Shown piece after piece: positions 12,757 to 37,024 of a stretch of 64,000 bases of DNA; position 1 is the stretch's first letter; each line of letters opens with the position of its first letter. This DNA is from Raillietiella orientalis (Eukaryota). Made by a program: the position numbers and the translations under genes. Location: assembly GCA_036172245.1 (NCBI GenBank), contig JAYWIR010000003.1:248001-312000 (forward strand), in the 5' to 3' direction. Below the pieces are notes generated by a model, which was not told where the DNA came from, did not search any database, and saw nothing but the letters and a program-made list of their open reading frames with translations.

Positions 12757-12955
12757 CGACGGCGGATATACACGCCTAACAATCAGGGGGCGTAGCATCC
12801 GCACCCAACAATGACAAGTGTCGTGCGCATGCCTAACAATGAGGAATGGCCCTTCTGCTGGCAACAACGGCGGATGGCGCACGCAGGCCTAACAATGAGT
12901 GACGCATCCGCTAGCAACAATGACGGATGGCGCAAGCAGGCCTAGCAGCGAGGGT
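12757..12955. repeat. Degenerate tandem array, ~28-nt subunits (~55-nt dimer), each ending in AACAAT or a variant
   Basis: AACAA(T/C) at 12778, 12807, 12835, 12863, 12891 and 12916 (spacing 29, 28, 28, 28, 25); recurring cggatggcgcaNgcaggccta and gcatccgc blocks. Confidence 0.75.
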
Positions 12956-19946: not shown

Positions 19947-22658
19947 GCGAATCCCCGCAACGTTCGTGCCCGTCCTGACCTTCCGCCTCCCATGACTGTT
20001 ATTCCTGGTCCTGAAATCCGGGACAACTTCCTCCCTTTCCCTCGTGGAGGGGTAGGGAGAGCTGAAGAGGGAGCGGTTGGCGGAAGAAGACCACCGAGAT
20101 GGACGCGCCGGAGGCACCCTTTCACGTGATCTTCCTCTCCTTCGTCGGCGAGATCTTCTTCCGGCTGCCCTTTATCTGATGGGTTGGATGGAGTGGTTGT
20201 CCGACAAATTCCCGGCCGTCCTCCGAGGCGCTTCCGTGCTGCGCGCTTCCTGGAAACCTAGCGCTTTCTCCCCGGCCCTACCCCCGCAACGTCCGTGCCC
20301 TACTTTCTGGCTTACGGGACGGCTTCCTCCTGCCCCTGCTCCCTTTCCTCAGTAGGTGGACCTTTCTCCCACACACTCACACCATGCACCCCCATCCCTC
20401 CCATCCTTTCATCAGGGCAGGAGGCTCCCTCTCTTTCTCCAGAGGAAGAAATAACGCTGAACCCGAAAAATGGAACCCTTCTGAACACTTGGCCACTGTC
20501 CAAAGCGGTCTCCGAGGGAAGACCGGATGCTGGTCGAGATGGATAGGGAGAATTCTCCCTCTGCGCCGTCGGGAGAGTCACGGAGCTTCTTGACGGGCTT
20601 GGAGTCCCTGCGCTCTGTCGGCCGATGATGCTCCGAGCACGCGAGCCATTGGGTCTTCTCCCAGAGGGACGGGCTGTCTCCCCACCCCTTTGGCTACTGC
20701 ATCCCTGCACATCTCCCTGATCTCCACTTCTCCAGCGAGCCGCTCTCTCCTCGGCGTTGGGACTCCTCCCTCACTCATCCCGATTGCAAGAAGCTTGAAC
20801 GTCCGTTGCCTAGAGTCGAGGCGCTAGGCCGGAGGGCTTTCTCCCCCACCCCCGCTCCAAGGAACCTCGCTCCACGTCTTCCTCTTGCGTTGAGACGGAG
20901 AACGAGAAAGGTTCTACTCCTCCTCCTTCTCCTCCACCCTTCCACCTTTCCTTCTCCTCCTGCTAGCTATCCAAGCGGTCTCCAGGCTGCTGCTGCTGCC
21001 ACGTATAGGGAGAATGTGACCCCTTTTGACCCAACCATAGAGGGGTCTCGACCCTCATCGCTGCTCGTGGAGCAGGTGAGAGAACCACGGAGGTCTTTCC
21101 TCTCCCCCTTTCTGACCCTTTACCCCTACGTCGCTCCAATGCCCTCTCTCAGACCCGAATGCACGCAGCACGGCGCCTCCCTTCACTTCCCACCCATCCC
21201 TCAGGAAATTCCCAAGGAGGAGTGTGGACGGACGGAACCTCACCCCCTCCCTCTCTTCCTAAATCCTGCTGGATTCCTGGATGACAACGACCAGCCGGGT
21301 CGTTGGCAACCGGGTGAGGGGGGGGGGGGGGGAAGAAAGAAGGAAACTTCGCCAACCCTCGCAAACGGATCTAGACCATTCCTCCTTCTCCTCCTATGCC
21401 CTCTCCCTCCAGCCTCGTCTTCCCCAAGTGAACTCTCGCACTGCCGCGAGACGGGCGCGGCCAAGTCGGAAGTCTCCCCCTCTGCGACCCCTCCCTTCCT
21501 GCGGGAGACTCGGCGGTGCGGTAGCGGCAGCGGTTGCGTGCTCTTCCCCCCTTCCTTTCTGCGCTTCCCTGCTCCAGCCTTTGCCTTCCCTTCTTTTCAT
21601 TCTCGAACTCCCAGACTCCGTACCAGAATTTTTGATCCTCCTGGGAAGGACCGCCCGTTTGCGACCGGGAGCTGGGTATGTTTCTTTTATCGAAGGCGGT
21701 CTTAGGCTACAGGAAGAGATCTGGGTCTTCCTGGCTAAAAGGCAGGCGACACTCTCTCTCTCTGGAGCAGGTGCCTCCCTGTGAGAACAGGGGGACCTCC
21801 TCCCCCTCCTGCTTCTGCTCTTTCCCTTTTTCGCTCCACCGCTCTCCGCCTGCTTCGCTGGGGAAGGCGGGACCACCCCTGCCAACCGTGTCCCTGTCGG
21901 TCTGAACAGATCCACTCCTGGACCGGCCCTCCGGAAAGACGGAGGACCAACCGCCTCCAAGAAAAGGGAAGAGGAAGAGAAACGGGTTGGGTGGAGGAAT
22001 GTGGGAGACGAGGCGCTCACGGGAGAGCAGGCGTTTCGGTCTCAATGGTCACTGTCTTTGCACAACCGAGAACTGATGAGGGGGTGGGAGAAGTCCTGAG
22101 GACTGTCACAGTTCGAGTGGTCGATCCTCCCCTAATTCCCCCTTCCGCTTCGAGGTGACACCCTCTCCTCCTCTTACTCTGCAGCTCCCACTGCATGCTA
22201 CGTTCCGCTGGAGGCGTCAAGGAGCGCCGACTCTGGGAGGACACTGACGCCCCTTATCCCTCTCTCCGCCTGTTGACCTTCCCTGGTAGAGGTCAATCCT
22301 GGAAGGAAAAGGTGAGCCCACTTGCTCCCAGCCCCGGGTCAGGTGAGAAACAGAACCAGATGTCCTCTCCTATTTTCTCCCTTCCTCCCCCTGCAGGAGA
22401 GCTCTACGCTAGGGGAGCGCTTCCCTGTCAGGCGAGATTGGTGGATATGGATCGTTGGGAGTCAACCCTTCCCTCGTCTTTGCCCATCCCGCACCCCACC
22501 AGCAACGATTCGCTCCCTCCTTCCTACCTCGTCCTCAGATATTTCCGGAGCCCTCCCTTCCTGCCCCGCCGTATGTCCCTCTTCTGGCCGGAAAAGGTGG
22601 GAATGAAGGGGGAGGGGAAGCATCTTGCAGGGTGGGATTGTGACACCGCTCCCCCGGT

Positions 22659-25600
22659 TTATGCGGTTCTCCGCGGGGGTCTCCGCGTCAGCAAGGGGAT
22701 CGCCGCTGCATCTGCACTCCTGGACGCCTCGAACCTGCGGACGAGGTCGATGACTGCGGCCACGTCCTCCATGGAGTTGCCGACCGCTCGCAGCTGCCGC
22801 CTGGACTCGTGCGGGCCGAGGTCGGGCACGCGCGGCCTGCCGGACACCTTGAGGAAAGCTCCCAGGACGCTCATCCGGAGGGTGCCGGCCTCCAGCTCCA
22901 GGGAGGCGCACGTCTTGCGGATGCGTTCCATCTCCGACCGCAAGCCCTCGGTCCTGGACTGCTGGCGGTCCAGCTCCAGCAGCAGCCTTGACAGAGCGTT
23001 CTTCCGGTCCATGACACCGTTCATAACCTGCAGGAGAGGAGAGAGAGGGGGAGAGGGGAGGGGAAGCAGGGAAAGGAAGAGGCGGAAGAGAGGAGAAAGG
23101 ACGTTCCGGGCTAGAGAGCGTGCATTCCCCCTGGCAGATTCCTGCAGAGGGGATGGAATCTCGGAAGCGGGGAACGCGAACGAGAGATACTCCCTAGGAG
23201 GACGGGTTAGGTGGGGGAGGGAAGGCAGGAGACTCCCTTTTTCTTCCTGTCTCCTGCACAGAAGTCGTCTGACCTCTTCCTCTGATGCCGTTTGCGCTAA
23301 CCCGACCCCTGGATCCGCCTGCCCCCCCCCCGTCCGACCTCCGACCTCCAGGATTGAGAGCGCTGGCCTTTCTCCAGCTGTCCCGTCGGCGGCGACGGAC
23401 GGGAACGGGAAGCTGTGAATTCCCTGCAGCTCCCAGGGGCGAACGAGGGACGTGAAGATGCCTGCAGGGGCTCTCCAAGAAGGGAGGCTGTCCAAGGACG
23501 CATCAGACGGGTCCAAGGAAACCTATCCGGGGGGGACTCTGCCAACCCCTTCCCTTTGAGAGGAGACCGTGACGACGAGTCTTTTCTGCGCTCTCCCCTG
23601 CCTCCTCTGCTTCCCCCTTCGACCTCTTCACCCTCTCCTCCCTCCCCATCTTCGCCTCCTTCGTCCCCCGGTTCCTTTTCTCTCCTTTTCCTTCTTGGCC
23701 CTCTCCTTCTCTCTTTTCCCCTCCAAGTTAAGGAATATCCCGGGAGGGGACCACCCTGTGGATCCAGAAAGGGCTCCCCTTACGCTCGGTAGGGGAACCC
23801 TTGCCCTGGTTGTTTCTGAAGGGTGCCCAGAAGGGAGCCATACCTCCCTCGTTCTTTCCGGAGCGACCCCCTTTGTTGGTGAGGGGCTCTTCGCGTTTCT
23901 CCGCCAGAGGGAACCCGGAAGGGATCTGCTTCTGGAATTTCTCCTCCGGAGGGAACCCACCCGCAAGGAAACCACTCCTGGTTTCCGCCTCCTCTGAAGA
24001 GAACTCCTCTTAGGGAAGCTCCCGAATTTACTCTGAAGGGGCGCTCTCTAAAGGGAGCAGCGCGCTCCTTGACGCTCTGGAGAGCCAATCCTCCCCTTCC
24101 CCCTCTCGGAGGGAGGGGAGCAGCTGTCTTTTCGCAACCGGAGGGGGGAGTAACCCCGAAAGCTTCCTTGATTCCTGGAAGGACCACGGAGGTGCAACTT
24201 CCAACTCCTTCCAGACGCGGAAAGGGGGAGGATCGAGACCCAAGGACTAACCCTCATTTTCTCGACGTCGATCCTTCCTCTTTCCTCCCGGAAGGGATTC
24301 GAAACCGAGACGACTCCCGGTGCCGCGGGAGTCTCCTCCTCCTCCCCACCCCATAACCCACCCTCTTCCCGCGGCAACCGGCCTCACTGCCTCCTCCCCT
24401 CCCCGAAGCTACCCCACCTTCAGAAGCCGCTCTCTCTCCTCCTCCTCTCCGATCGCCTCCTCCTCCAGACTCTCCTGCCTGCGCACGAACTCCTCCTGCA
24501 CGGCGAGCAGCAGGTGGTACCTGCGCGGCAGGTCGGCACTGTGCGTGCGCCGGTCCGAGCACTTGGCAACGTCCTCCAGGAACCTCTGGAATGGCGAATA
24601 GGGGGAGAGGGAACGGTGAGCGACGTGGCGCCCGGAGCTCCCCTCCCTCCCTTCCGCCCGCGTCCCAAGACAAGAAAGCCAGGTGCCCTTCCTTCCGCTT
24701 CCACTCCTCCCCTTCCTTGCTCCCAAGACACGACCCAGAAGGACCCGCCCAGCCTCCGCTCCTCCTCCGGCATCCCTGCGAGCCCGCGCCAAGGAAGAGA
24801 GGGAGGAGCCCTAGGAGCTGGACACGGGGGAAGGGAGCAGGAGAAGCCGGCCGATCGCCCTCTCGTCACCCAGTGTTCTCCCTGGAGACGCTTCCCACTT
24901 CGGCGGCTCCTGCCCGGCCTTTCCCGGTTATGCTGATGTCCAGGACCGATCTCGGGTGGCTTCCCGGAAAAGTGGCCGTCCGGGAAAAAGGGGGGGCGGG
25001 GGCACGCCGAGAGGCCAAGTCCTTCCGAGGGAGGGAGGAGGAGGATCTCTTCCCGATCGGCGGGGAAGGCAGGAACACCCACGGAGGGTGACCCTTGGTC
25101 ACTGCCATACTCGTAGCAGGGAGCTTGGCCCGAGCAGCCGAGGTACGTCGTATGGAGGAGATCGTACGCCGTATCCTTCCCCCCTTCACCGTAGGAACTT
25201 CCTCCCCCGCAGAGGAACGACGGCGCCGGAAGACGTCGCACAACTCACCTCGGAGTCCCCTCGCAGCCCCCCACCGACTCTGCAGCACTTTTAGAGTCCT
25301 GGAAGGAGAATGCCACCCCCCTCCCTATCTCGCGGAGGCAGAGAAAGAAAGATGGCGGCTCCCACCCCGTGAGCGCGCTCCCGCTTCGTAGAGAGCAATG
25401 CGTTCCCAAGGCAACCTTCGAGCGCCGGGAAGGAGTTCGCAATGCAGCTGAGTTTGCGAAGGTCCGCCTGAACCCTCGCGGCTGCTGCCTCATCCCCTGA
25501 GGAAGAAGGGAAGGAAGGGAAGAAAAAGTGCTCCCCCCCTTCCATTACTCCTTATTCCGTCCTCCTCCCTCTTCCTGATTGTGGTGAGTGAGGAACTCTT

Positions 25601-27686
25601 TTTTTCTTCTCGGGGGGGAAAGGGGATGGAGATTCTACCCTCCCAGGAGACTCTCCTTTCAAGTCCCGACCTCTTATCAAGCCCCGGGCCGCCGAGTTTA
25701 CCCCTGCAGGGAAGAATTCAAGGCTGCATCCTCCCTCCCCCTGAACGCTGGAAGCGTCATCTCGAAAGAGTAGGAGCTCGTCTGCATGCATGGAAAGGAA
25801 AGGAGGAATCCTCCATCCGGGAGAGGAGAGTCAGTGGCCCCAACCAGCCCCTTTCCATACCCGGAAGCAGGTTCAGAGGAGCCCCGTTTCCATGGGACAG
25901 CGGAGGAAGCTGCTGGAGGGCGAACCCAGGAGGACTACAGCCGAAGGGCGCAGCGGCCCGCGGTACCGAAGAACGGAAGAGAGGCAGAGCGAGAGAATGT
26001 AGAGGGCGAAGAGCCTGGATGTGCATTCGAACACTTCCCTCGCAGTCCCGGGAGCGTCCACATGCGGGGGCTCAAGGGAGGAGGCTGAAGGAGGTGACAT
26101 TCCGGAAAAAGAAGCAGATAGTGCCCCACCCCACCCCTCCATCTTCCCCCCTCCGACCCAGCCCATGCCCCTGAAGCGCGGTCTCGCTCAGGTTCCACTG
26201 CAGATCGCCGCGCTCAACCTTGTGGAAGACGAGGAGGGGAAGGGAGGCTGAAGGGGGGATGCTTCTGGGGGGAAGCGTTCTTCACGGCATACCGAGTTTT
26301 CCCGTCCTTCTCTTCCCGCTCCTCCCCTCCGCGGCGACCGGGGTCAACATCCTCCGGCCCCGAGTGCTGCCCGCCTCTCCCGAAAACGAGCGGCTGCTCG
26401 CGTGCAGGAAGGGTTTTGCCCCACGATGGGCCGCGGAACCCAAAGGAGAGTAGGTCCGGCAGGCCCCCATCTCGTGGACCTTGAGCAGACCCCTGGCAAG
26501 AGGTGGAGATTGGCCGAGAGACCTCTCCTCTTCTTTCACTGTGCGCCCGAGGGAGGCAGAGTGAAAAGGTCAAGAGGTCTCTCCTGAGGAAGAAAGAAGG
26601 GGGAGGGAGACAGGCACAGGCGGAGAGGGAGGTCGGTTCGCGCCGACGCTCCTGTTGCTTCCTTTAGCCAGCGTGCGGCCGTCGGCGACAGTGATCAGGG
26701 GCACAAGTCAGGTTCGGAGGAGCAAGGAGTCCCTCCTCCGAACTACTCCTTGCTCCGAGAATGGCGTAAAGTCACCGCTGACCACTTCCGCACATGGCGC
26801 CACGCACGAAAAGTCGTCCCTGCCGCCGCCGTGATCCTCGAGATGTGGAAGCACCTGCGACTCCGACGAGCAGGAAGGAGGTGGAGGAGGTGTCCAGGAA
26901 GAGAGACCCGTCATATAGAAGGGTAAAGGGAGAGCGGAGGAGGGCGAGAAGAAGAGGGTACATACCGCCATGCAGCCGCCCCATTTCCTTCCCCTTCCCT
27001 CCAGCCTTTCTTTTCCCCGTCTCATCGCAGCGTCATGAGCCCGCGCGAAGAGCACATTGACTCTTCCAGGGAAGAAGGCGGACGCAACATCGTCCGTCGT
27101 CCCGGACTGACCATGTACGTCGCGTTCCTCCTCACTTTGCCCTCCGTTCTGGTCTTGAGGAGCTCCAGCTTGTCCACCGTGTCGAGCAGTCTCGTTACTT
27201 CGGCGTCCTTCTCTCGCATCCTCTCTCTTTCCTTCTCCACGGTCTCGGCCGCCCTCTGCGACCTCGAGCGATTCTTCTGCAAGCACAAAAGGTCGAACCC
27301 TTCGGCAAAAACGCTGTCCAGGTGCCCGTTCTTTCTTTCCCTTCCGACAGGCGGAGCTGCTCCGTGACATCACCTGGAGGAAGGACTCCAGCTTGACCAA
27401 AACATCCTTCAGAAGGATCTCCTTTTCCTCGGCTTGCCTGTTGCGTTCGGACACCCTCGCTGACCTTTCTCCGTACCTCCTCTTCTCCCTGTTCAAGGCT
27501 TGTCGGGAAAGAAGAGAAATCAGCAGCGCTCACCAGAGCCCCAGTCTTACTTTCCTCGACGTTGAGCAGCTCCTGGACCCTGCGCCCCAAGGCTTCTTCG
27601 TGGAGACCCGAAATCTCATTTCTAGGCACCACGCTGCAACCGTTACAAGAGCGCATTTCACATTCTCGTGTGGATTTCAAAAGCAT
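22659..27686 (-). CDS. CCDC42: CCDC42/CFAP73-like coiled-coil protein (DUF4200 family), ~320 aa
   Basis: Exons 27686-27551, 27498-27374, 27276-27112, 24585-24418 and 23027-22659 (963 nt, all phases compatible). Motifs EKEILLKDVLVKLESFLQKNRSRSQRA, YMRFLEDVAK...RYHLL and LEAGTLRMSVLGAF...QLRAVGNSMEDV follow the family order (LKESLLKFDKFL.EN..KR.RA; Y..YLE.V; LLLG.IKMA...QL..I...I.DL). Divergent; start codon inferred from an in-frame TGA at 27719-27717. Confidence 0.75.
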
Positions 27687-27725
27687 AACGGAGCACTTTT
27701 GCTTCAACCCTCGGTGTCATCTTTT

Positions 27726-27950
27726 CTGTCCTTGTTTTTGCGATTGTCGTCAGTCGTCGTCTTCAGAGTTGCCCTCCTTGCTGTCCTTGTTTTTGCGATT
27801 GTCGTCAGTCGTCGTCTTCAGAGTTGCCCTCCTTGCTGTCCTTGTTTTTGCGATTGTCGTCAGTCGTCGTCTTCAGAGTTGCCCTCCTTGCTGTCCTTGT
27901 TTTTGCGATTGTCGTCAGTCGTCGTCTTCAGAGTTGCCCTCCTTGCTGTC
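27726..27950. repeat. Minisatellite: 4 perfect copies of a 55-bp unit plus a 5-bp partial copy
   Basis: Unit ctgtccttgtttttgcgattgtcgtcagtcgtcgtcttcagagttgccctccttg starts at 27726, 27781, 27836 and 27891. Confidence 0.97.
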
Positions 27951-30900
27951 TTTGGCTTTTGCAGTTGTTGTCGTCGCCGCCGCTATCGTTATTGCTGTTG
28001 CTCTTGTCGTTATGAAAGGGAGTCTGTGCTTCACGGGACACAAGGCAGACTTACAAGAACTCTCTGGCTTCGCTCCAGGTTCTAAAATACCAGCTGAGCG
28101 CCTGCTCGTCTCGCAAGCGGAAATACTCCAGAGAATCCCCCATGTCTTGTTTCGCGGGTGCCCTATTCCCTAATCTCGGTCCGACATCCGCGAGAGAGCA
28201 GCAGCACTTTCTTCCGAGTTCCTGCGCTCCTCCGACTCTTGGAAGCACGAACCACCGCACGTGACCCGTCACGAGCCAAAACCCACCTTCCGCCGGCTCA
28301 TGCTCTGCTCGGTCTGCGAAAGGCCGTCCGTCAGTCACGCACGAACAATGCGGCATTGTCGATCCTCCAACAATCGGAACGCTCGAGTGGCTTCGACGCT
28401 CACCAGTCCGATCGAAGTTTTTGGTCCAGAGTCACGTGATCGAAAATCCTCCTTCGAATTGGACTTCTGGTTGCGCGATGGACCGCAGCAGCAGCTGCTC
28501 TTCAGAATGCGCCTTCAAGGTGAGCTCTTCCCTCTGCTTGCAAGGAAGAAAGAAAAGAAAAATGGACTGGACTGTGGAGGACGCAGTCTCTCGCTTGGCT
28601 GCCGTCTATCGAAGGGTGCGACCTTCTTCCCAGCCAGCCTAAAGTCCTCCAGCACATCAGAGCCATTTCGACCAAGACCATCGACGTCACAGGGGATGCA
28701 AACCCTTCTGTAGACTGAACCACGGCTTATTAGGTATCCGGTTCCTTGGTACTCGGTCACGGAAGGATGCTCGCGTCCTGCATCACGGACGACGTCTGGC
28801 GATTATTTCGGTTGCATCATCTCGAGTCCAAATCCGTTTATCAGAATGAAGATTCAATCCGATGACGATCCACAGCTCGGGAGGAAAAAACCGGAAGGCG
28901 TGACATTTCGTTTTCCTAAGGCAACAATGGAAGCGTGTGTGTTTTCCCGGGGTTGAGTGTACAAAGTATCACAGCAACAATTGTGTACACATAGCAAGAG
29001 TTAGGTTCGCTCAGGTCAAAGAAAAACAGTCAAATCAGAACACAGTGGCTTGGGGCCGTCTCACTCTTCGTGTGCACGATACGGCGGCTAACTGCAATCG
29101 CAGCAGCCAAATTTGCCTAGCAGATTCTGTAACATTTCTCTGCCTTCCCCTCTTGCCTCCCCCAACAGTCTACTGTGGTATCCTCTTGCGTCTGTGCCTG
29201 GATGTGGTAAGCTCACTTTACCTGCTCACGGAAAGGCATGCGGAATCTCATAACCGCCTACGAGTAAGATCAGATTGAAGAACAATGGTCAGCAAGTAAT
29301 TATTTCGAAGATGAACGCGATTTCCACCTTTTTCCTTGTACTTCCATACACTAATCATCCACGATGTTTTCTTAAGTCACCTCAACACCAAACTCAGATC
29401 TTCAGGTACGAACAAAGTTACGCTGAATCTTGAAAACTCAGAGGAATGAGTTCCGTGTTTACTAATTCTGCTAGTGTTACTGCTATTAGATGATGATTAC
29501 CGAGTCGCATACGCTCTGCATCACCTTTACTGTCATTACGGGGCTCCTTAAACGGTTTAAAGCACCTTTTTCACGTGGGTCCCCTTTTCCGATTCCAGAA
29601 GTGGGTGACCATCCACCGATGTACATTCGATGAACCTAGACGTCAAGACCTCTTATCATTTCGAAAAGTAACTGGAATTCTGACATGTGAGAACAATCCC
29701 CAAAATGTTGCCAATGTGTTAAACCCTGGTAGACAAGGGCTTTCGTGCCAAAAAAAAAGAGCAGAGGTTTTGATAACTTGGTCCGACTGCTTCCACGTGA
29801 TTCGTTCTTGTAAGCCAGATGAGACCACGAGAGAATGCGCGACTGCTTCGAAGAGGACTTATTTTTCAGCCGCCTGCGTGAACCGTGCATTGTCTTTCAG
29901 GGCACAGTAATACAAATTCCACATGTAATGTAGGATTATGTGCTCGCAAGAGCCGTTACAGGAAGCAAAGTGTTCGTGTTGCACGGCACGGCACGGGTCA
30001 CGGGATTGCGGAGGATCGAGGAGGATGTGTATGGAAGCCCCCCCCCCCTGTTGATCCCGGCTCACGCGCACGGGAAGACATGCAATGGGTGAAATTCCAG
30101 AGCTTTGCAAAACGAATTTGTTAATTTGCCTCGCAGTCATCTGAGGCACATGTAAAGTAAAATGGTGATGATTTCGTGTCCGTGCACTGCCCACACGAAG
30201 GAAAAATCTCTATGAGAATTGAACTTCTCTATAAGAACCGAAATCTTGGAGGTATCACAGCATGAATCACAAATGTGATGCTGTTTATGTTCTTACTGGA
30301 AGAGATCGAATTACTCTGAAGAAATGTTAAATTATGATACGCTTTTACAATGAAATTCCGATAGCAGCTACTACAGAGGGGGGGAAAACACACACACAGC
30401 TACGCAAAAGGAGAATAACTTCTCGCAAACTCCTAATCAATGGGATGCTGATTCTGAAAGGACCCTTAGTAATTTGATGAGGAAGCCTGTGAGGAAGATG
30501 AGGAATTTCACATTTTCGTGGCAACACACACGATGGGGCTTGAGAGCCTTTGGAGGGCACGGATACAAGGGGACATGGCAAAGTAATACGTCAAGTCCAT
30601 CCAGACATTGGTCCTCAGCAGCTGTACTTGGATCTTTGTGAACTGTGCACTAACTTTATCCAAAATCATATGCACATACGTTATCCAGCGTTAACATGAA
30701 AGAAATGATGGAAGGAATAGTCTTCACTGCTTATAAAGTAATTAAATTTAAATTAAATATTAATTGAACTTCTCATTAGAACACCATCCACAAGTACCAG
30801 GAATTGGTTGCATCCATCAGATTTAGAAACTCCCATCATTGGATTACCATTAATTCTTAATTAATGGTTATCCATGCAAAAATTACTTCCAAATGTGTGA

Positions 30901-31573
30901 AGATGTGTCAGGGTGCAAAGTGACTGATTGCAAACCTCAAAATCAGCCAGTAGTGAAATTAACCAGTCTTTACTGATCATGCATCGGTAATTACAATTTT
31001 GTATCAAAAGGAAGTTCAATTCTAGCCAATTTTGCATTGAAGGGAAGTTACAGACAAACCTCCATTTAGAATTTCTTTTCTCATTTCAAATTTACCAGAT
31101 ACAACATTCACGAATTATCCACATTGTAACTTGCCTAGTTACTACAAGTAATTATTATTGGTCAATAACTTTGACTTCATCAACACAGTATGAAATCCAA
31201 GATTCAAACAAATCAACTTCTAATCAAGAGTGTGATCCAAAAAAAAAAAAATCAATGCAATTTTGTGATTCTTACCAAGCATCCATTGATATATCCAGAT
31301 TTCAAAAGTTGCAGCATAGGAACTAGAGAAAAACAAACCCACTGAAACTGTGAAGCTGATGGTTCAAATGATACGAATATTCATAAATGGATTAAGTTTG
31401 TTAATTGCTTTCCAAATACAATGCTATTTTTATTTATGCATGACATTATGTATTTATGGGATCCTGAGCTTCTGCCATGCGACTCCTGGACTTGCATTCT
31501 GCTAAAGATGGAACCTCAAATTCGGCATTTGCTGACATTAGCTTGCATAAAGCACCATAGGGACTTTAAACTT

Positions 31574-32244
31574 TCAAACTTCGTAATCATCTCTCTGAAA
31601 ATCACATCAGCATTTACAATCCACAAGCTAACCCACCATTTCATTATATTCAAGCACATGACGTCTAATCGCAGAACTATCCACCCATGTGATATAATCT
31701 TCTAAATTCCTTGGCACCAAAACTGCGGGATCTGTTACCAAATCTGGTCCAATGCGTACATGGCCTTGTTCAATAAACTGTGTGGCCATACGGACCGTGG
31801 GAGCCATTTTCAACCGCAACATAATCACGGGAAGTCGACGGCGGCAGAAACTGGATGCAGATACATTGTTACACAACTGAAGATTCAACTTTGTGGGAAT
31901 CAGTCCTAACGGATACCTAATCACTTGAAAATTTTTCGGGTTACTGTTTAAAAACTTACAATTTGTTCAACAGTAAGGCACTGGCTTCAACACGAAAATT
32001 ATCCTTGGGATCCAAGTCGTGAATTAAACGCGCCAGTTCCCTAATTTCCCTTGATAATTTGTTATACCTGCAAAACTTGAAGGAACGCAAACAAACGCGT
32101 TTCTACTCACGCTGTGTAATCCTCGCGGTTCTGGATGCAAAACCTTCGCATAATTTTAACTTCCTTCAAATTCCTATCAACCTCCCAATTAATGAAATCC
32201 ACTTTTTTCAATAACTTCTTTTCATGATATTTCAGCTTCCTCAT
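31574..32244 (-). CDS. IMP3: U3 snoRNP protein IMP3 (S4 RNA-binding domain), 180 aa
   Basis: Exons 32244-32111, 32067-31960, 31916-31637 and 31594-31574 (543 nt); introns 43, 43 and 42 nt. [20 protein letters not shown]...[18 protein letters not shown]...[14 protein letters not shown]...[11 protein letters not shown]...[28 protein letters not shown]. Confidence 0.97.
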
Positions 32245-32363
32245 ATTTATGCAACTTTCGTGGGTTTTACTGTCACGTTCACACGTATCCCAGACGAGAG
32301 TCCACACAGCATTACCACTGAACATTGCACAAATATAGGAAAATATACCTCGTTACTCGCAAG

Positions 32364-32384
32364 TATCGATCCTCACTGGCCAAT
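32364..32384. promoter_or_regulatory. Candidate IMP3 promoter elements: DRE-like TATCGAT and CCAAT box
   Basis: TATCGATC at 32364-32371 (one mismatch to DRE TATCGATA) and CCAAT at 32380-32384, 120-140 nt upstream of the IMP3 ATG. Confidence 0.35.
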
Positions 32385-33345
32385 AAGGGAACCACATTTA
32401 CATTTATGATTTATTTTCTTGTCGTTCATCTTTGGAAACTACCTGAATTCATGAAATCATGAAGATCTTCAGGCAATGCAAATTTATTCGTTCTTTTTCA
32501 TATAAAATATTTGAAATACTCGTTTTCTTGGTCTCGGTATGCTTATGTATATCTGATATCAAGTGAAGAGACACACATTTAACGGTTCCTTAATGCTTAA
32601 GACCTTAATGCTTCTGTATTGTTACGCCATGCTATCTTCAGAATTCAAATCTGTGATAGTCACACACAAAAAAGTTCTCGTACTCTTTTAACATACATGC
32701 ATGTGTGCATATTTGTCGTTTGTCGTTCCACAAATGCTCACTGAAGATGATTTTTGGAAATAAATACCCAAAAATCCTAGTATGAAAAATTTAATAGTTT
32801 CCTACTGTTAAATCCTAGTAGAAGATCTTGATTTCTTCGGTCTATAAATTTGCTTTGCAAGAATTCGTGCACAACAAATGCAGGAAGATATTGTTAGTGT
32901 CTATATTGCTCTTGACATTTCTCGTACTGAACATTTCCATACTTGTTCACAAAGGTATTTAGAATTAAGTGACTGTGATCAGAATTTTCATGCGATTTAA
33001 AGGGCACGACAAAATCCATTCTCTGACGACACATAACTTGCACTTCAAAGGAGATTTCATGATGCTTGTTATATCTGCAGAGTATTCAGTTCCTAAAATA
33101 ATAGTTGCTACACTCTTATGAGTGCAGAGCATGCTCTGATACTTTGCACTAAAGCGCTTAGGCTTTCCTATTCAAAGACTTGAATGCATCCGTTTAATGG
33201 CGAACTGATGTAGTGTTACTTTCTATTTCGAATTTCTCTCTGCACTGTCACAAACTTGAGCGCCCAGTTTTTCGCCTTCTTATGTTCATGTGAACTGACG
33301 ATCACTATCGCACATGACGTGCTCTGTGATTGACACTTGATTCGA

Positions 33346-33938
33346 TCACTTCAGTAAATGGGATTCACAGAGCCTCCTTCGGAGCCTCCACAGAACCAAA
33401 TACGAAAGCGTGGCACTGAAGAAGGATGCTTTCCGGAACAGTTGCATGGAAGATTTTCGCACTCGATTTTCGATAGCCTCTGCACATAGATCCTGAGTTC
33501 GGAGAGTGAAGCATGGGTCCACTCTCCGAATCATTTGACCTATACCTATACCGACCTCGGACTCCAAATCGTTTCCCATTGGACTTTTTCTCGGCTACTT
33601 TCGAGGTGACTCGGAAAGTCTCGTTAGCTTACTCCCCAACTCGGTCCGTATCGCTGAAATCTACGTAACTTCCAAGCAACTTTATGATTTGGACTTTGTA
33701 CGAGGTCGATTTTGTTTTGGCTTGTTTTTTCGAATTGCTGCCTGCCGTCATCGTGCATCCTCGGAGTGGGCTCTCGGAACCAGGACACGTGATTTCCGCT
33801 CGTTTCCTCCTCCGTGGGAGCACCAACCGCCTCTGCGTGCGGCTCTGACGAGCCTGCTTCTCTCTGTGATCGGCTTCCCGTGCCATCAGGGAAAAGAAGA
33901 AAACAAAATTCTTCTTCCAAACCCCAGAAAATAAGCAC
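33346..33938 (-). CDS. Possible small hypothetical gene between IMP3 and HIG1/NAF1
   Basis: ORF 33624-33938 ends at a phase-0 donor GGA|GTAAGC. A 38-nt intron (33632-33595) would join it in frame to ORF 33346-33594 (PRKSPMGNDLESEV...). No homolog recognised. Confidence 0.2.
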
Positions 33939-35377
33939 GTATGGATTTATAGATTCTTCACCAGATAGTCCACGCTGGAATTGGAATCACTGCTGTTCCT
34001 TTGACAAATTGGTGGATGGAGAAGCTTATGCGTGCTGCTTTCTTCGATGCTGTCGGAATGAGTGCAATTTCTCTTCTCGGTGCTAAAGGAAAGCAGTAAA
34101 TTATGTTGTTGTCTTCGTTTTTACATAGGTAAACCAATAGGTCTATCGTGAAGCGGAGGGTGAGAAATACCGCCTTTCAGACGGAACAGGGGAATTTCTC
34201 GAGTGAAAACGTGGGCAAATGCTGTTCACGGAACGGAAGTACCACTCTGCCTGAAGTGACAGCCAAGTCATCCTACAATTCAACTGTTTCGAGAGTTTGT
34301 GCGTAAAAAGAAGTACTGTTGTATAGAGTCCTGTCAGAGCTTTATTCTCCAGCGGCAAATGCTGGTATAGGAGGGAACTAATCTTCTATGTATTCATTTA
34401 GGCAAAACTTGCTTTATATTACTTAAACATACCGACATCTCTGCCTACTATGGAAAATGCACATGAGGGAAATTCACAGTTTATAGTGGTTACACCAGAT
34501 TAAGGAGTTAAAGTTTAGATAACGTGTAAAGCAAAGTTGGAGCAACTATTTTTTTTTTTACATAGCAAGTGTGAATAAACGTTTGTTTGTTTATTTTTTT
34601 CGAAGCAAAAAGTTTGCAAATAGTTTTATTAAGATGTGAGGAGTTATTCTTGAGAACATAAAATAAATCTTTCAAGATAAAATGAGATTTCTGCTGTTTA
34701 CGAAAAAAAAGGAATTTTTCCATCTTTGAAGTCATAATCACATCCTCCGGTTGCAAAAATTTGAATGGTAATGAAAACTTTAATGCTGTGCTTGAGCATC
34801 ATTCTACAGCTATACAGTTATTGCTAAATAACATTTAAAATGTTTTAATCTTGCGAAACATCAATTTGATAATGAAGTAGAGTTAATGGCATCATTTTGG
34901 TGTTTGATTGAGAATATTGCTTTCATTTGGAATGTGTACTGATAGGCTTGTATGGAGATATAGTTGGAATAAGTGGCAAAATGCGGTAACGTGAGCTTAC
35001 ACGAAGATCGAAATTGTATTTCAATTTCATGTAAGTCTATATTTGGGGGAATAATGACTGTTTCTTGTGACCATTTTTCTAAAGTAGGTCCCCACTTATA
35101 TTAGTATAACTCGGTTTATTTATGCCACGATCGTGGTCTTACGAGAAAAATTTCTCATCGATGTTTCCGTATTGCGGCCCCGTACTTGGAATTTGGAACG
35201 CATCCCCAACCCCAGAATAAATTATCTTCCTTTAGAGTTTGGAATATATGTATAAAAAAAAAGTAAAAGTCAGTTGAGTGAATTTTGACGATAGTAGTTC
35301 TGAATGTGTAATTATCTATATTGAAAATCTTAAATCAAGGTAGTAAGTATAGTATGCACTAACTGTGTTAGTACGGA

Positions 35378-35806
35378 ATGAGTACGAATGCAGCTGATAC
35401 CAAAGAGGAGGTGTCAAAAGTTGAACAATGGAACCAGATTCTTCAAACATCCATGCCATCAGAATGGAATCAGAATCAGACTGTGATCAAAAAACTCATG
35501 TCAAACCCTCTTGTGCCACTGGGGATGCTGGCAACAACAGGTACATGAATGCTCTGAAACCCATCATTTCTGAATTTAAATTTTATTACAGCAGCCTTAG
35601 TGATGGGTTTAAGAGCTATGATGCAAAACAATCCCCAGAAATCTCAACTGATGATGCGTTTCAGAGTAGGAGCTCAAGCATTTACGATTCTAGCAGCCTT
35701 AACAGGGATTTTGATAGGATTGACCCCACCTCCAGGGCTTTCCAGGAAGAATGCTGCAAAACAAAGACAACAAGAATCGATGCAACAGAATCAGCATGTA
35801 CCTTAG
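35378..35806 (+). CDS. HIGD2A: HIG1-domain protein (HIGD2A/Rcf1-like mitochondrial inner-membrane complex IV factor), 125 aa
   Basis: Exons 35378-35540 and 35592-35806 (378 nt), 51-nt GT..AG intron. Product MSTNAADTKEEV...KKLMSNPLVPLGMLATTAALVMGLRAMMQNNPQKSQLMMRFRVGAQAFTILAALTG... carries the HIG1 hallmarks NPLVP.G...T...L..GL and SQ.MMR.RV.AQ.FT, with two hydrophobic segments. Paralog assignment (2A vs 1A) tentative. Confidence 0.92.
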
Positions 35807-36996
35807 AACCACATATCTCACAGTGTGAGCAGGGCACAGTGCTTCTAAGTTTTACATCAGATCATGTCACTGACCCCGTAGGAAATCAAACTGAAATAGC
35901 AAATGCATATGCAAGAGAACAAGACAGTTTTCAAATGGACGCAGAGAAAGATGCACTGTTGGAGTTTAACGATGTAAAATCTGCTGATACAACAGATGAC
36001 TGGAAAAATGTACAGAACTCAGATTTGCCATCACAAAATCTTGCAAACTTGTCGAATTCACAAGAGAGAAAACTCATTACTGAGCCACAAGAAAACCAAG
36101 CAGGAAGTTGGAGTCCATGCACAGAACAGCATCAGCAAGATGCAAACAAGGAAGAAAAAGTGACTGTCTCCATGCCTTCAAGTATGGGATTGCTGCTTTT
36201 GCAAGAATATGATAGTGAATCCGAAGAGAATGTGACCGTGAATGATTCACTTACATGGCGTGAAACAAATGAAGAGTGTGAACCTGTTTCTTCCCAAAAT
36301 GATGAGAGTGATTTGGATGAACCAGTAATGAGAATTATGCCTGTTCATGTTCCATTAGAACCTCCCCCTCGCACCAAAGGGGAATTATTACCTGAAGATC
36401 TTCCTCCCATTGAGCAGTTGCGTATTTCGGTTTCCTCTCAAGAATGTGCATTGTTAGGAGAATTGAACAGTATTGTTGGATCTCTGGTTGTAGTGGCAGC
36501 CTTACCAGGAACTCCAGCATTAGATTTGGATTCGGTTCTGTTTATTGAGGAAGGAAAAATTGCATTAGGCAAAGTGTTTGATGTGATGGGACCAGTTGCA
36601 AGGCCATTTTATGTTGTGCGTTTCAACAACACTGCAGAAATTCAAGAATTGGGTCTTGCTCCCGGTGTGCCAGTATATTATGCTCCTTATAGCCCATATG
36701 TCTGTTATGTGTTTTTGGAACACCTGCAACAAATAAAGGGTAGTGATGCATCATGGGAAGATAACAACGAACCACCACCCCAGTTCTTGGATTATTCTGA
36801 TGATGAAGAAGAAGCAAGATCTCGGAAGAGAAATGAGCTAACAAATAAACGCAAATGGGAGGAGCGTGGTGCAGATCCCCGAAACCTGCGTTACCTGGGT
36901 CCAACCCAGGAAAATACTCCGCAGTTCACTTTGTCATGCCCATCACAAAGCGGGCCACCACACTCCCTACTATTCTCCAGCATGACATTTCATTAG
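35428..36996 (+). CDS. NAF1: H/ACA ribonucleoprotein assembly factor NAF1 (Gar1/Naf1 domain); 522 aa unspliced, 505 aa if 35541-35591 is spliced
   Basis: RTKGELLPEDLPPIE, LDLDSVLF, LGKVFDVMGPVARPFYVVRFN and KGSDASWEDNNEPPPQFLDYSDDEEE are NAF1 motifs, preceded by a long acidic N-terminus. True start uncertain (35428, 35545 or 35935). Confidence 0.93.
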   Translation: MEPDSSNIHAIRMESESDCDQKTHVKPSCATGDAGNNRYMNALKPIISEFKFYYSSLSDGFKSYDAKQSPEISTDDAFQSRSSSIYDSSSLNRDFDRIDPTSRAFQEECCKTKTTRIDATESACTLEPHISQCEQGTVLLSFTSDHVTDPVGNQTEIANAYAREQDSFQMDAEKDALLEFNDVKSADTTDDWKNVQNSDLPSQNLANLSNSQERKLITEPQENQAGSWSPCTEQHQQDANKEEKVTVSMPSSMGLLLLQEYDSESEENVTVNDSLTWRETNEECEPVSSQNDESDLDEPVMRIMPVHVPLEPPPRTKGELLPEDLPPIEQLRISVSSQECALLGELNSIVGSLVVVAALPGTPALDLDSVLFIEEGKIALGKVFDVMGPVARPFYVVRFNNTAEIQELGLAPGVPVYYAPYSPYVCYVFLEHLQQIKGSDASWEDNNEPPPQFLDYSDDEEEARSRKRNELTNKRKWEERGADPRNLRYLGPTQENTPQFTLSCPSQSGPPHSLLFSSMTFH

Positions 36997-37024
36997 TGAA
37001 TTAAACGTGGATATTCTTATAAAA

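Follow-up and report, generated by a model that had tools for sequence, protein, structure and literature searches.

Our analysis of a 64,000-nucleotide (nt) stretch of the Raillietiella orientalis genome (assembly GCA_036172245.1, contig JAYWIR010000003.1, positions 248,001 to 312,000 of the forward strand; hereafter the window, whose own numbering is used throughout) suggests that two unrelated genes form a dual-coding, probably dicistronic unit. One encodes a HIG1 protein of the HIGD2A type and the other the nuclear factor NAF1. In the reading that we favor, to which we assign a probability of about one half, NAF1 would be translated by leaky scanning from an ATG in the first HIG1 exon, and the 51-nt intron that separates the two HIG1 exons would be an ordinary one. 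This intron had been singled out in an earlier, sequence-only reading as a possible switch between the two proteins. On the best-supported reading, HIG1/NAF1 instead belongs with the dual-coding or bicistronic animal genes that are already known.

The HIG1 gene lies on the plus strand in two exons. The coding part of exon 1 (35378-35540) comprises 54 codons and the first base of a split alanine codon, and begins with ATG 35378, the earliest ATG past a stop in this frame at 35369. Exon 2 (35592-35806) ends with the stop codon TAG at 35804-35806. When the exons were searched separately against Pfam, positions 2-13 of the HIG_1_N profile (PF04588) matched residues 43-54 of exon 1 (13.8 bits), and positions 15-51 matched exon 2 (E = 7.2e-12, 45.8 bits, cut-off 22.4). 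With positions 2-13 closing exon 1 and positions 15-51 opening exon 2, the split codon is therefore position 14. Because the profile breaks exactly there, the intervening 17 codons (35541-35591, plus strand, GT..AG, phase 1 within the HIG1 frame) are, on this homology-based gene model, a genuine intron of HIG1. In a PDB search, exon 2 was also aligned with residues 59-99 of the human HIGD2A chain 9i6f_N (E = 2.7e-6). The spliced product is thus predicted to be a HIGD2A-type HIG1 protein of 125 amino acids (aa), an assignment made because of the HIG_1_N match together with the HIGD2A alignment of exon 2. The exon 2 translation contains QLMMRFRVGAQ, which fits Q-x3-R-x-R-x3-Q, presumably the motif of type 2 HIG1 proteins (HIGD2A/Rcf1-like). 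Homologue searches with exon 2 peptides returned nothing, but the word index is weak at 70-82 aa, and this outcome does not show that homologues are lacking.

The NAF1 open frame extends over 523 codons from stop to stop (35425-36996, plus strand), with its stop codon TAG at 36994-36996 and in-frame ATGs at 35428, 35464, 35545 (inside the intron), 35935, 36172 and beyond. It encodes a Gar1/Naf1 RNA-binding domain at 36451-36690 on the plus strand (residues 342-421, counted from ATG 35428), which matched the Pfam profile PF04410 (E = 3.6e-17, 62.4 bits, cut-off 29.3) and the PDB chain 2eqn_A (E = 2.1e-14). The product of this PDB entry, LOC92345, we take to be human NAF1. A search in which 7,999 candidates were scored yielded 160 homologues at E <= 0.001, the top named ones being NAF1 from insects and further protostome groups, with identities of up to 60% across the domain. 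Among the matches listed (120 of the 160), the best showed 60% identity across 34% of the query, and coverage of the query was at most 42% in every case. Downstream of the junction shared with HIG1, NAF1 is uninterrupted by introns and occupies a single exon (35592-36996). It is conceivable, as speculation on our part, that NAF1 is a copy placed beside HIG1 by retroposition. In three termite-gut metagenome loci (L045-L047), the NAF1 match was spread over ~2.26 kilobases (kb).

The two frames overlap at 35428-35806 on the plus strand, over 328 nt once the intron is removed, with NAF1 in the -1 frame relative to HIG1. This frame overlap is statistically real and beyond chance. Within it, the NAF1 frame has no stops and the third frame has 13. 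To estimate chance, the synonymous codons of HIG1 were drawn anew, with its protein sequence unchanged, according to the codon usage of NAF1 at 35935-36993. The NAF1 frame was stop-free in only 0.94-1.2% of 20,000-40,000 such redraws, with a mean of 3.2 stops expected; taken by exon, the stop-free fractions were 0.060 (35428-35540) and 0.170 (35592-35803). The excess openness is due to codon choice in HIG1, in which T endings that create a NAF1-frame stop are avoided. T-ending codons were found at none of the 9 positions where a T makes such a stop, versus 28 of 77 elsewhere in HIG1, and they make up 113 of 271 codons in downstream NAF1.

Signs of coding in the NAF1 frame continue past the end of HIG1. 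The 42 codons that follow the HIG1 stop and precede ATG 35935 (35809-35934, plus strand) are coding-like: the three frames contain 0, 3 and 3 stops, the NAF1 frame being the one with none (stop-free P = 0.105 by dinucleotide shuffling), and the codon log-odds of +10.25 falls within the range that leave-out scoring gave for true NAF1 windows (3.4-23.4). This value exceeded those of stop-free shuffles (P = 0.021) and of 1,087 stop-free windows from flanking non-genic DNA (P = 0.038). Coding of NAF1 very probably reaches upstream of 35935. There is no NAF1-frame ATG in 35546-35934, and a motif scan of exon 2 found no CTG, GTG, ACG or TTG in a strong context. Because the DNA upstream of 35935 is coding-like and yet has no in-frame ATG between the intron and 35935, and because exon 2 has no strong-context near-cognate start, the start of NAF1 most likely lies inside the HIG1 gene.

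Motifs around the two genes suggest a single HIG1/NAF1 mRNA from one compact unit at ~35.27-37.05 kb, since the sole pair of TATA and initiator (Inr) motifs lies upstream of HIG1 and two poly(A) signals closely follow the NAF1 stop. The putative core promoter (35251-35275, plus strand) consists of TATAAA at 35251-35256 and an Inr-like TCAGTT at 35270-35275, at a spacing of ~21 nt, which is below the canonical one. A scan of the plus strand from 35000 to 35950 found no further TATAAA or Inr-like motif, except an Inr-like TCATTT inside the intron. Just past the NAF1 stop are the poly(A) signals ATTAAA (37000) and AATAAA (37025), both within 37000-37030 on the plus strand. Neither hexamer is present in 35216-36732, that is, up to 926 nt past the HIG1 stop, where there are weak variants only. 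Two very short upstream open reading frames (uORFs) precede HIG1 on the plus strand, one from ATG 35304 to TGA 35322-35324 (6 sense codons) and one from ATG 35354 to TAA 35360-35362 (2 sense codons); for them to be part of the mRNA, transcription would have to start near 35272. At its distal end the unit appears tightly bounded, because a gene on the opposite strand ends at 37058-37060. This is the proximal member of two tandem QVR/Ly6 (quiver-family) genes on the minus strand (37058-38413), each modelled with one intron (47 and 86 nt). Its stop codon is at 37058-37060 and its AATAAA at 37046-37041 on the minus strand, and its 3' end converges on that of NAF1 and probably overlaps it.

In the scheme that we propose, one mRNA spanning ~35.27-37.05 kb would carry two unrelated conserved proteins in overlapping frames. 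The 51-nt intron would be spliced as a rule, as an ordinary short intron, and its removal would allow production of HIG1. Translation of NAF1 would start within the first HIG1 exon, with ATG 35428 as the likeliest start and ATG 35464 as the alternative, and its frame would cross the splice junction and continue, in the -1 frame, through the entire second exon. Some scanning ribosomes would bypass the HIG1 ATG and a weak out-of-frame ATG at 35388 and then meet a strong-context ATG 50 nt on, with the majority of ribosomes producing HIG1 and a minority NAF1. What the sequence shows is the anatomy of the locus, the families of both proteins, and the excess openness and coding-like codons of the NAF1 frame; the single mRNA, constitutive splicing, the ATG used and leaky scanning are what we infer. 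Among the ATGs in exon 1, the HIG1-frame ATG 35378 (CGGA ATG A) carries G at -3 with A at +4, and ATG 35388, in the third frame, has C at both positions, whereas A at -3 is combined with G at +4 in both NAF1-frame ATGs, 35428 (AACA ATG G) and 35464 (CAGA ATG G). The difference between 35378 and 35428 is in the direction expected for leaky scanning, although the purine at -3 keeps ATG 35378 from being clearly weak. Only a single ATG, 35388, lies in the 47 nt between the HIG1 and NAF1 starts, and ATG 35428 is the second codon past the last upstream stop of the NAF1 frame (35422).

The intron itself has properties that the sequence-only reading described correctly. It had reported 17 codons with no stop in the NAF1 frame, and indeed there are zero stops in this frame from 35425 to 36993, with the intron in or out. 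It had also reported a stop-start overlap. On rechecking the coordinates, a retained intron makes the HIG1 frame read GGT ACA TGA and end at 35546-35548, with a 56-codon product, and ATG 35545-35547 is in the NAF1 frame (coordinate modulo 3 = 1). The two codons form ATGA at 35545-35548 on the plus strand, in unspliced RNA only, and the ATG has T at -3 and A at +4. Splicing thus gives the full HIG1 frame and retention one cut at codon 56, as had been claimed, and the NAF1 frame is intact both ways. The donor reads CAG/GTACAT, followed by two branch-like CTGAA motifs and the acceptor TTTTATTACAG. Among five modelled introns of neighbouring genes (42, 43, 43, 47 and 86 nt), four have GTRAGT/GTGGGT donors and the fifth has GTTGGG, and one of the five has a length that is a multiple of three. 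Chance estimates came from shuffling the interior of the flagged intron 20,000 times. A stop-free NAF1 frame across it was obtained with a probability of 0.27, at least one HIG1-frame stop with 0.73, a first HIG1-frame stop forming ATGA with 0.035, and ATGA jointly with a stop-free NAF1 frame with 0.011. A length divisible by three adds a factor of ~1/3; for the exitron-like pairing of such a length with a stop-free NAF1 frame, chance is ~1/3 x 0.27. These small joint probabilities are only suggestive, because the features of the intron were chosen after the fact. Codon usage of the intron in the NAF1 frame is non-coding-like (log-odds -2.96).

A number of observations weigh against leaky scanning in a dual-coding unit. 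With its purine at -3, the HIG1 ATG is not clearly weak, and the out-of-frame ATG 35388, along with the possible upstream ATGs 35304 and 35354, stands in the scanning path. The combination of divisibility by three, NAF1-frame openness and ATGA in the intron, with a joint probability of ~0.004 (0.011 x 1/3), is left to chance. The overlap statistics are post hoc, for a locus picked because it looked odd, and the codon-usage table was built from 353 codons only. Relatives give no help either. The 246 NAF1-frame residues of 35593-36330 had no relatives among 1.84 billion representatives, and the NAF1 N-terminus was unalignable among 10 homologues (top hits and named insects, chosen from those listed). 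A tblastn search with spliced HIG1 found a match at E <= 1 in none of 63 metagenomic NAF1 loci, all of them distant (31-56% identity) and 36 of them with at least 1,000 nt upstream of the domain match; the sole hit, at E = 6.9, was on the opposite strand of one locus (L015). Because none of these 63 loci holds a HIG1 match, the HIG1/NAF1 arrangement appears not to be general. Within the window there are no paralogues, and in the literature on NAF1 with HIG1 or HIGD2A we found no description of such a gene pair, which does not exclude that one exists.

Of the alternatives, a separate NAF1 mRNA is the most probable, although we consider it unlikely. Such an mRNA would start in or upstream of HIG1, or would have an alternative 5' exon spliced to the acceptor at 35592, an arrangement like that of CDKN2A, and its first good ATG would be 35428 or 35464. 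The DNA would then be dual-coding with each mRNA monocistronic, as animal mRNAs are as a rule, and the overlap statistics fit this equally well. Because the HIG1 and NAF1 ATGs are only 50 nt apart, a small spread of transcription start sites would suffice. However, no TATA or Inr motif was found in 35276-35563 from which a shorter mRNA could start, and no canonical poly(A) signal lies before 36732 that could end a HIG1-only mRNA.

The switch put forward in the sequence-only reading is improbable in our estimation. According to this proposal, retention of the intron turns HIG1 into a 56-codon uORF, and ribosomes that terminate at TGA 35546-35548 reinitiate at ATG 35545-35547 to make NAF1, with splicing favoring HIG1. 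Its structural premises hold, and the divisibility by three, the open NAF1 frame (P = 0.27) and the ATGA (P = 0.035; joint 0.011) all speak for it. So does the donor GTACAT, unlike four of the five neighbouring donors, and short introns under intron definition are often retained. Overall the donor is not clearly weak, because the CAG at the exon end pairs fully with U1. The mechanism itself found no support in any of our tests. The intronic ATG is not needed, because exon 1 supplies the NAF1 frame with two earlier ATGs in good context, 35428 and 35464. In addition, the exon 1 stretch of this frame, which would be open with P = 0.06 if unused, is not explained by an intronic start. ATG 35545 has a poor context, with T at -3, and the codon log-odds of the intron in the NAF1 frame (-2.96) also counts against its translation.

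Coupled termination-reinitiation does occur in cellular mRNAs with overlapping open reading frames (ORFs), a further point for the switch: according to Gould et al. 2014 (PMC3923131), 5 of 24 human overlapping-ORF mRNAs tested appeared to depend on it. One of these transcripts (PMC3923131) needed an Asp-rich C-terminus of the first ORF, whereas the truncated HIG1 would end in ...ATTGT, without such a motif. In viruses the process uses a termination upstream ribosome-binding site (TURBS), which PMC5972666 describes for caliciviruses and influenza B, with UAAUG or AUGA-type overlaps and a motif-1 core UGGGA. The ATGA of the intron resembles these overlapping stop and start codons. Unlike the viral cases, HIG1/NAF1 has neither a UGGGA nor a supporting structure, and its ATGA, found only in unspliced RNA, is dispensable given the upstream ATGs. 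The core was absent from either strand of 33820-36184, the nearest sequence being TGGGGA at 35520-35525. The 151 nt of 35450-35600 fold at -28 kcal/mol, no better than expected (z = +0.37; 118 of 200 shuffles as good), with no dedicated search made for motif 2/2*. Moreover, 56 codons exceed the reinitiation-permissive uORF lengths that PMC5972666 gives for mammals (<30 codons), plants (16) and yeast (10). A TURBS-free termination-reinitiation, through which splicing of the 51-nt intron would choose between HIG1 and NAF1, is what would be left of the proposal. If true, it would couple the state of mitochondria to the assembly of small nucleolar ribonucleoproteins (snoRNPs) and of the telomerase ribonucleoprotein (RNP).

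A start of NAF1 at ATG 35935, 129 nt past the HIG1 stop, seems quite improbable. The open frame upstream would then be an untranslated chance occurrence or relic. The 353-aa protein would keep the whole Gar1 domain, several homologues among the matches listed are ~290-360 aa long, the ATG has G at +4, and the N-terminal region of NAF1 had no relatives in the search. Nonetheless, the upstream openness would have to be accidental three times over (0.0094 for the overlap, 0.105 for the stop-free stretch 35809-35934 and 0.02-0.04 for its codon usage), with a joint probability of ~1e-5. The ATG also has a poor context, with T at -3, and ribosomes could use it only by reinitiating downstream of an ORF of 125 codons or by passing at least 9 ATGs while scanning.

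Delayed reinitiation in the manner of GCN4/ATF4 is very improbable as well. After translating the 2-codon uORF (35354-35362), ribosomes would resume scanning, pass the HIG1 ATG before regaining competence and start NAF1 at 35428 or 35464, so that NAF1 output would depend on the supply of ternary complex. Both short uORFs are of reinitiation-permissive length, and the uORF stop precedes the HIG1 ATG by 16 nt, ATG 35428 by 66 nt and ATG 35464 by 102 nt, a spacing that could favor delayed reinitiation on NAF1. This scheme, however, rests wholly on the presumed transcription start near 35272, and the contexts of the upstream ATGs range from weak to moderate (35304 has T at -3 and 35354 has A). Finally, we give next to no credence to a -1 frameshift at GGGTTTA (35605-35611, plus strand, HIG1 zero frame) that would yield a HIG1-NAF1 fusion: this X XXY YYZ heptamer is correctly framed, and a -1 shift there leads into NAF1, but ~0.5 heptamers are expected by chance per 125 codons and 2 were found, a membrane helix fused to a nuclear assembly factor seems implausible, and the site was rejected for want of a downstream structure (z = -0.77 and -0.05) and is probably a chance occurrence.

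The proposed dual coding of HIG1 and NAF1 has parallels in known genes. In the classical animal cases MOCS2A/MOCS2B, CDKN2A (INK4a/ARF) and GNAS (XLas/ALEX), one stretch of DNA encodes two proteins in separate frames, with leaky scanning or the use of alternative first exons as the means, and in most of them at least one product is lineage-restricted. By contrast, HIG1 and NAF1 are both ancient, and only the unconserved N-terminal tail of NAF1 would be overprinted on HIG1. For Drosophila sloth1/sloth2, PMC9681215 describes reporter mutagenesis that supports leaky scanning past a suboptimal first Kozak context. As described there (PMC9681215), this locus is likewise an animal nuclear gene in which a small mitochondrial-membrane ORF comes first and the first ATG is poorer than the second. 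The sloth ORFs are related and 5 nt apart in that account, whereas the unrelated HIG1 and NAF1 overlap by ~328 nt and the second is a 500-aa nuclear factor; furthermore, sloth1/sloth2 is known from reporters and HIG1/NAF1, here, from sequence alone. Green-algal bicistronic loci, which according to Duenas et al. 2024 (PMC11291117) are translated by leaky scanning, have exclusively polycistronic nuclear transcripts, a weak Kozak context at the first ORF and few ATGs before the second. They belong to another kingdom and involve other genes, and they are known from transcript data (PMC11291117), as against the genomic reading on which HIG1/NAF1 rests.

If the dual coding is true, two ancient and unrelated housekeeping genes share ~330 coding bases and probably one promoter. 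HIG1 is associated with cytochrome oxidase and NAF1 is an assembly factor of H/ACA RNPs, and a shared transcript would link production of a mitochondrial protein to that of a nuclear RNP factor. The locus would offer a clear natural example of overprinting, with the fast-evolving N-terminal tail of NAF1 laid over a conserved membrane-protein gene, and would indicate that animal mRNAs can support expression of a second long ORF. For annotation, standard gene callers would cut NAF1 to the 35935 start or miss one of the two genes.

The window is a mosaic in G+C content (GC). An AT-rich gene island at ~30-38 kb (GC 0.37-0.45) lies within DNA of 59-67% GC, and 46-64 kb is intermediate (0.42-0.49). 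We scanned 208 ORFs of the window with Pfam in two sets of 99 and 109. The first set held 97 of the 237 ORFs of at least 110 codons, picked by length or AT-richer position, and 2 shorter ones, and the second held ORFs 70-109 codons long that lie at 28.0-35.3 kb or at 45.5-64 kb. Besides HIG1 and NAF1, the only Pfam matches among the 208 ORFs were an S4-domain gene and the two QVR/Ly6 genes; neither the scanned long ORFs of the 59-67% GC DNA nor those of 46-64 kb had a match. Rfam gave no match at E <= 0.1 in 30000-39000. The S4-domain gene (S4 and Ribosomal_S4 N-terminal Pfam domains) is on the minus strand at 31590-32250 (~31.6-32.3 kb) and has three very short introns of 43, 43 and 42 nt by exon reading. 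It may encode the U3 snoRNP protein IMP3 and would, like NAF1, be an RNP and ribosome-biogenesis factor. Outside the gene island, a 55-nt tandem repeat is present at 27726-27976 (4.6 copies, 96% matches), and a weaker one of 53 nt at 12826-12944 (2.2 copies).

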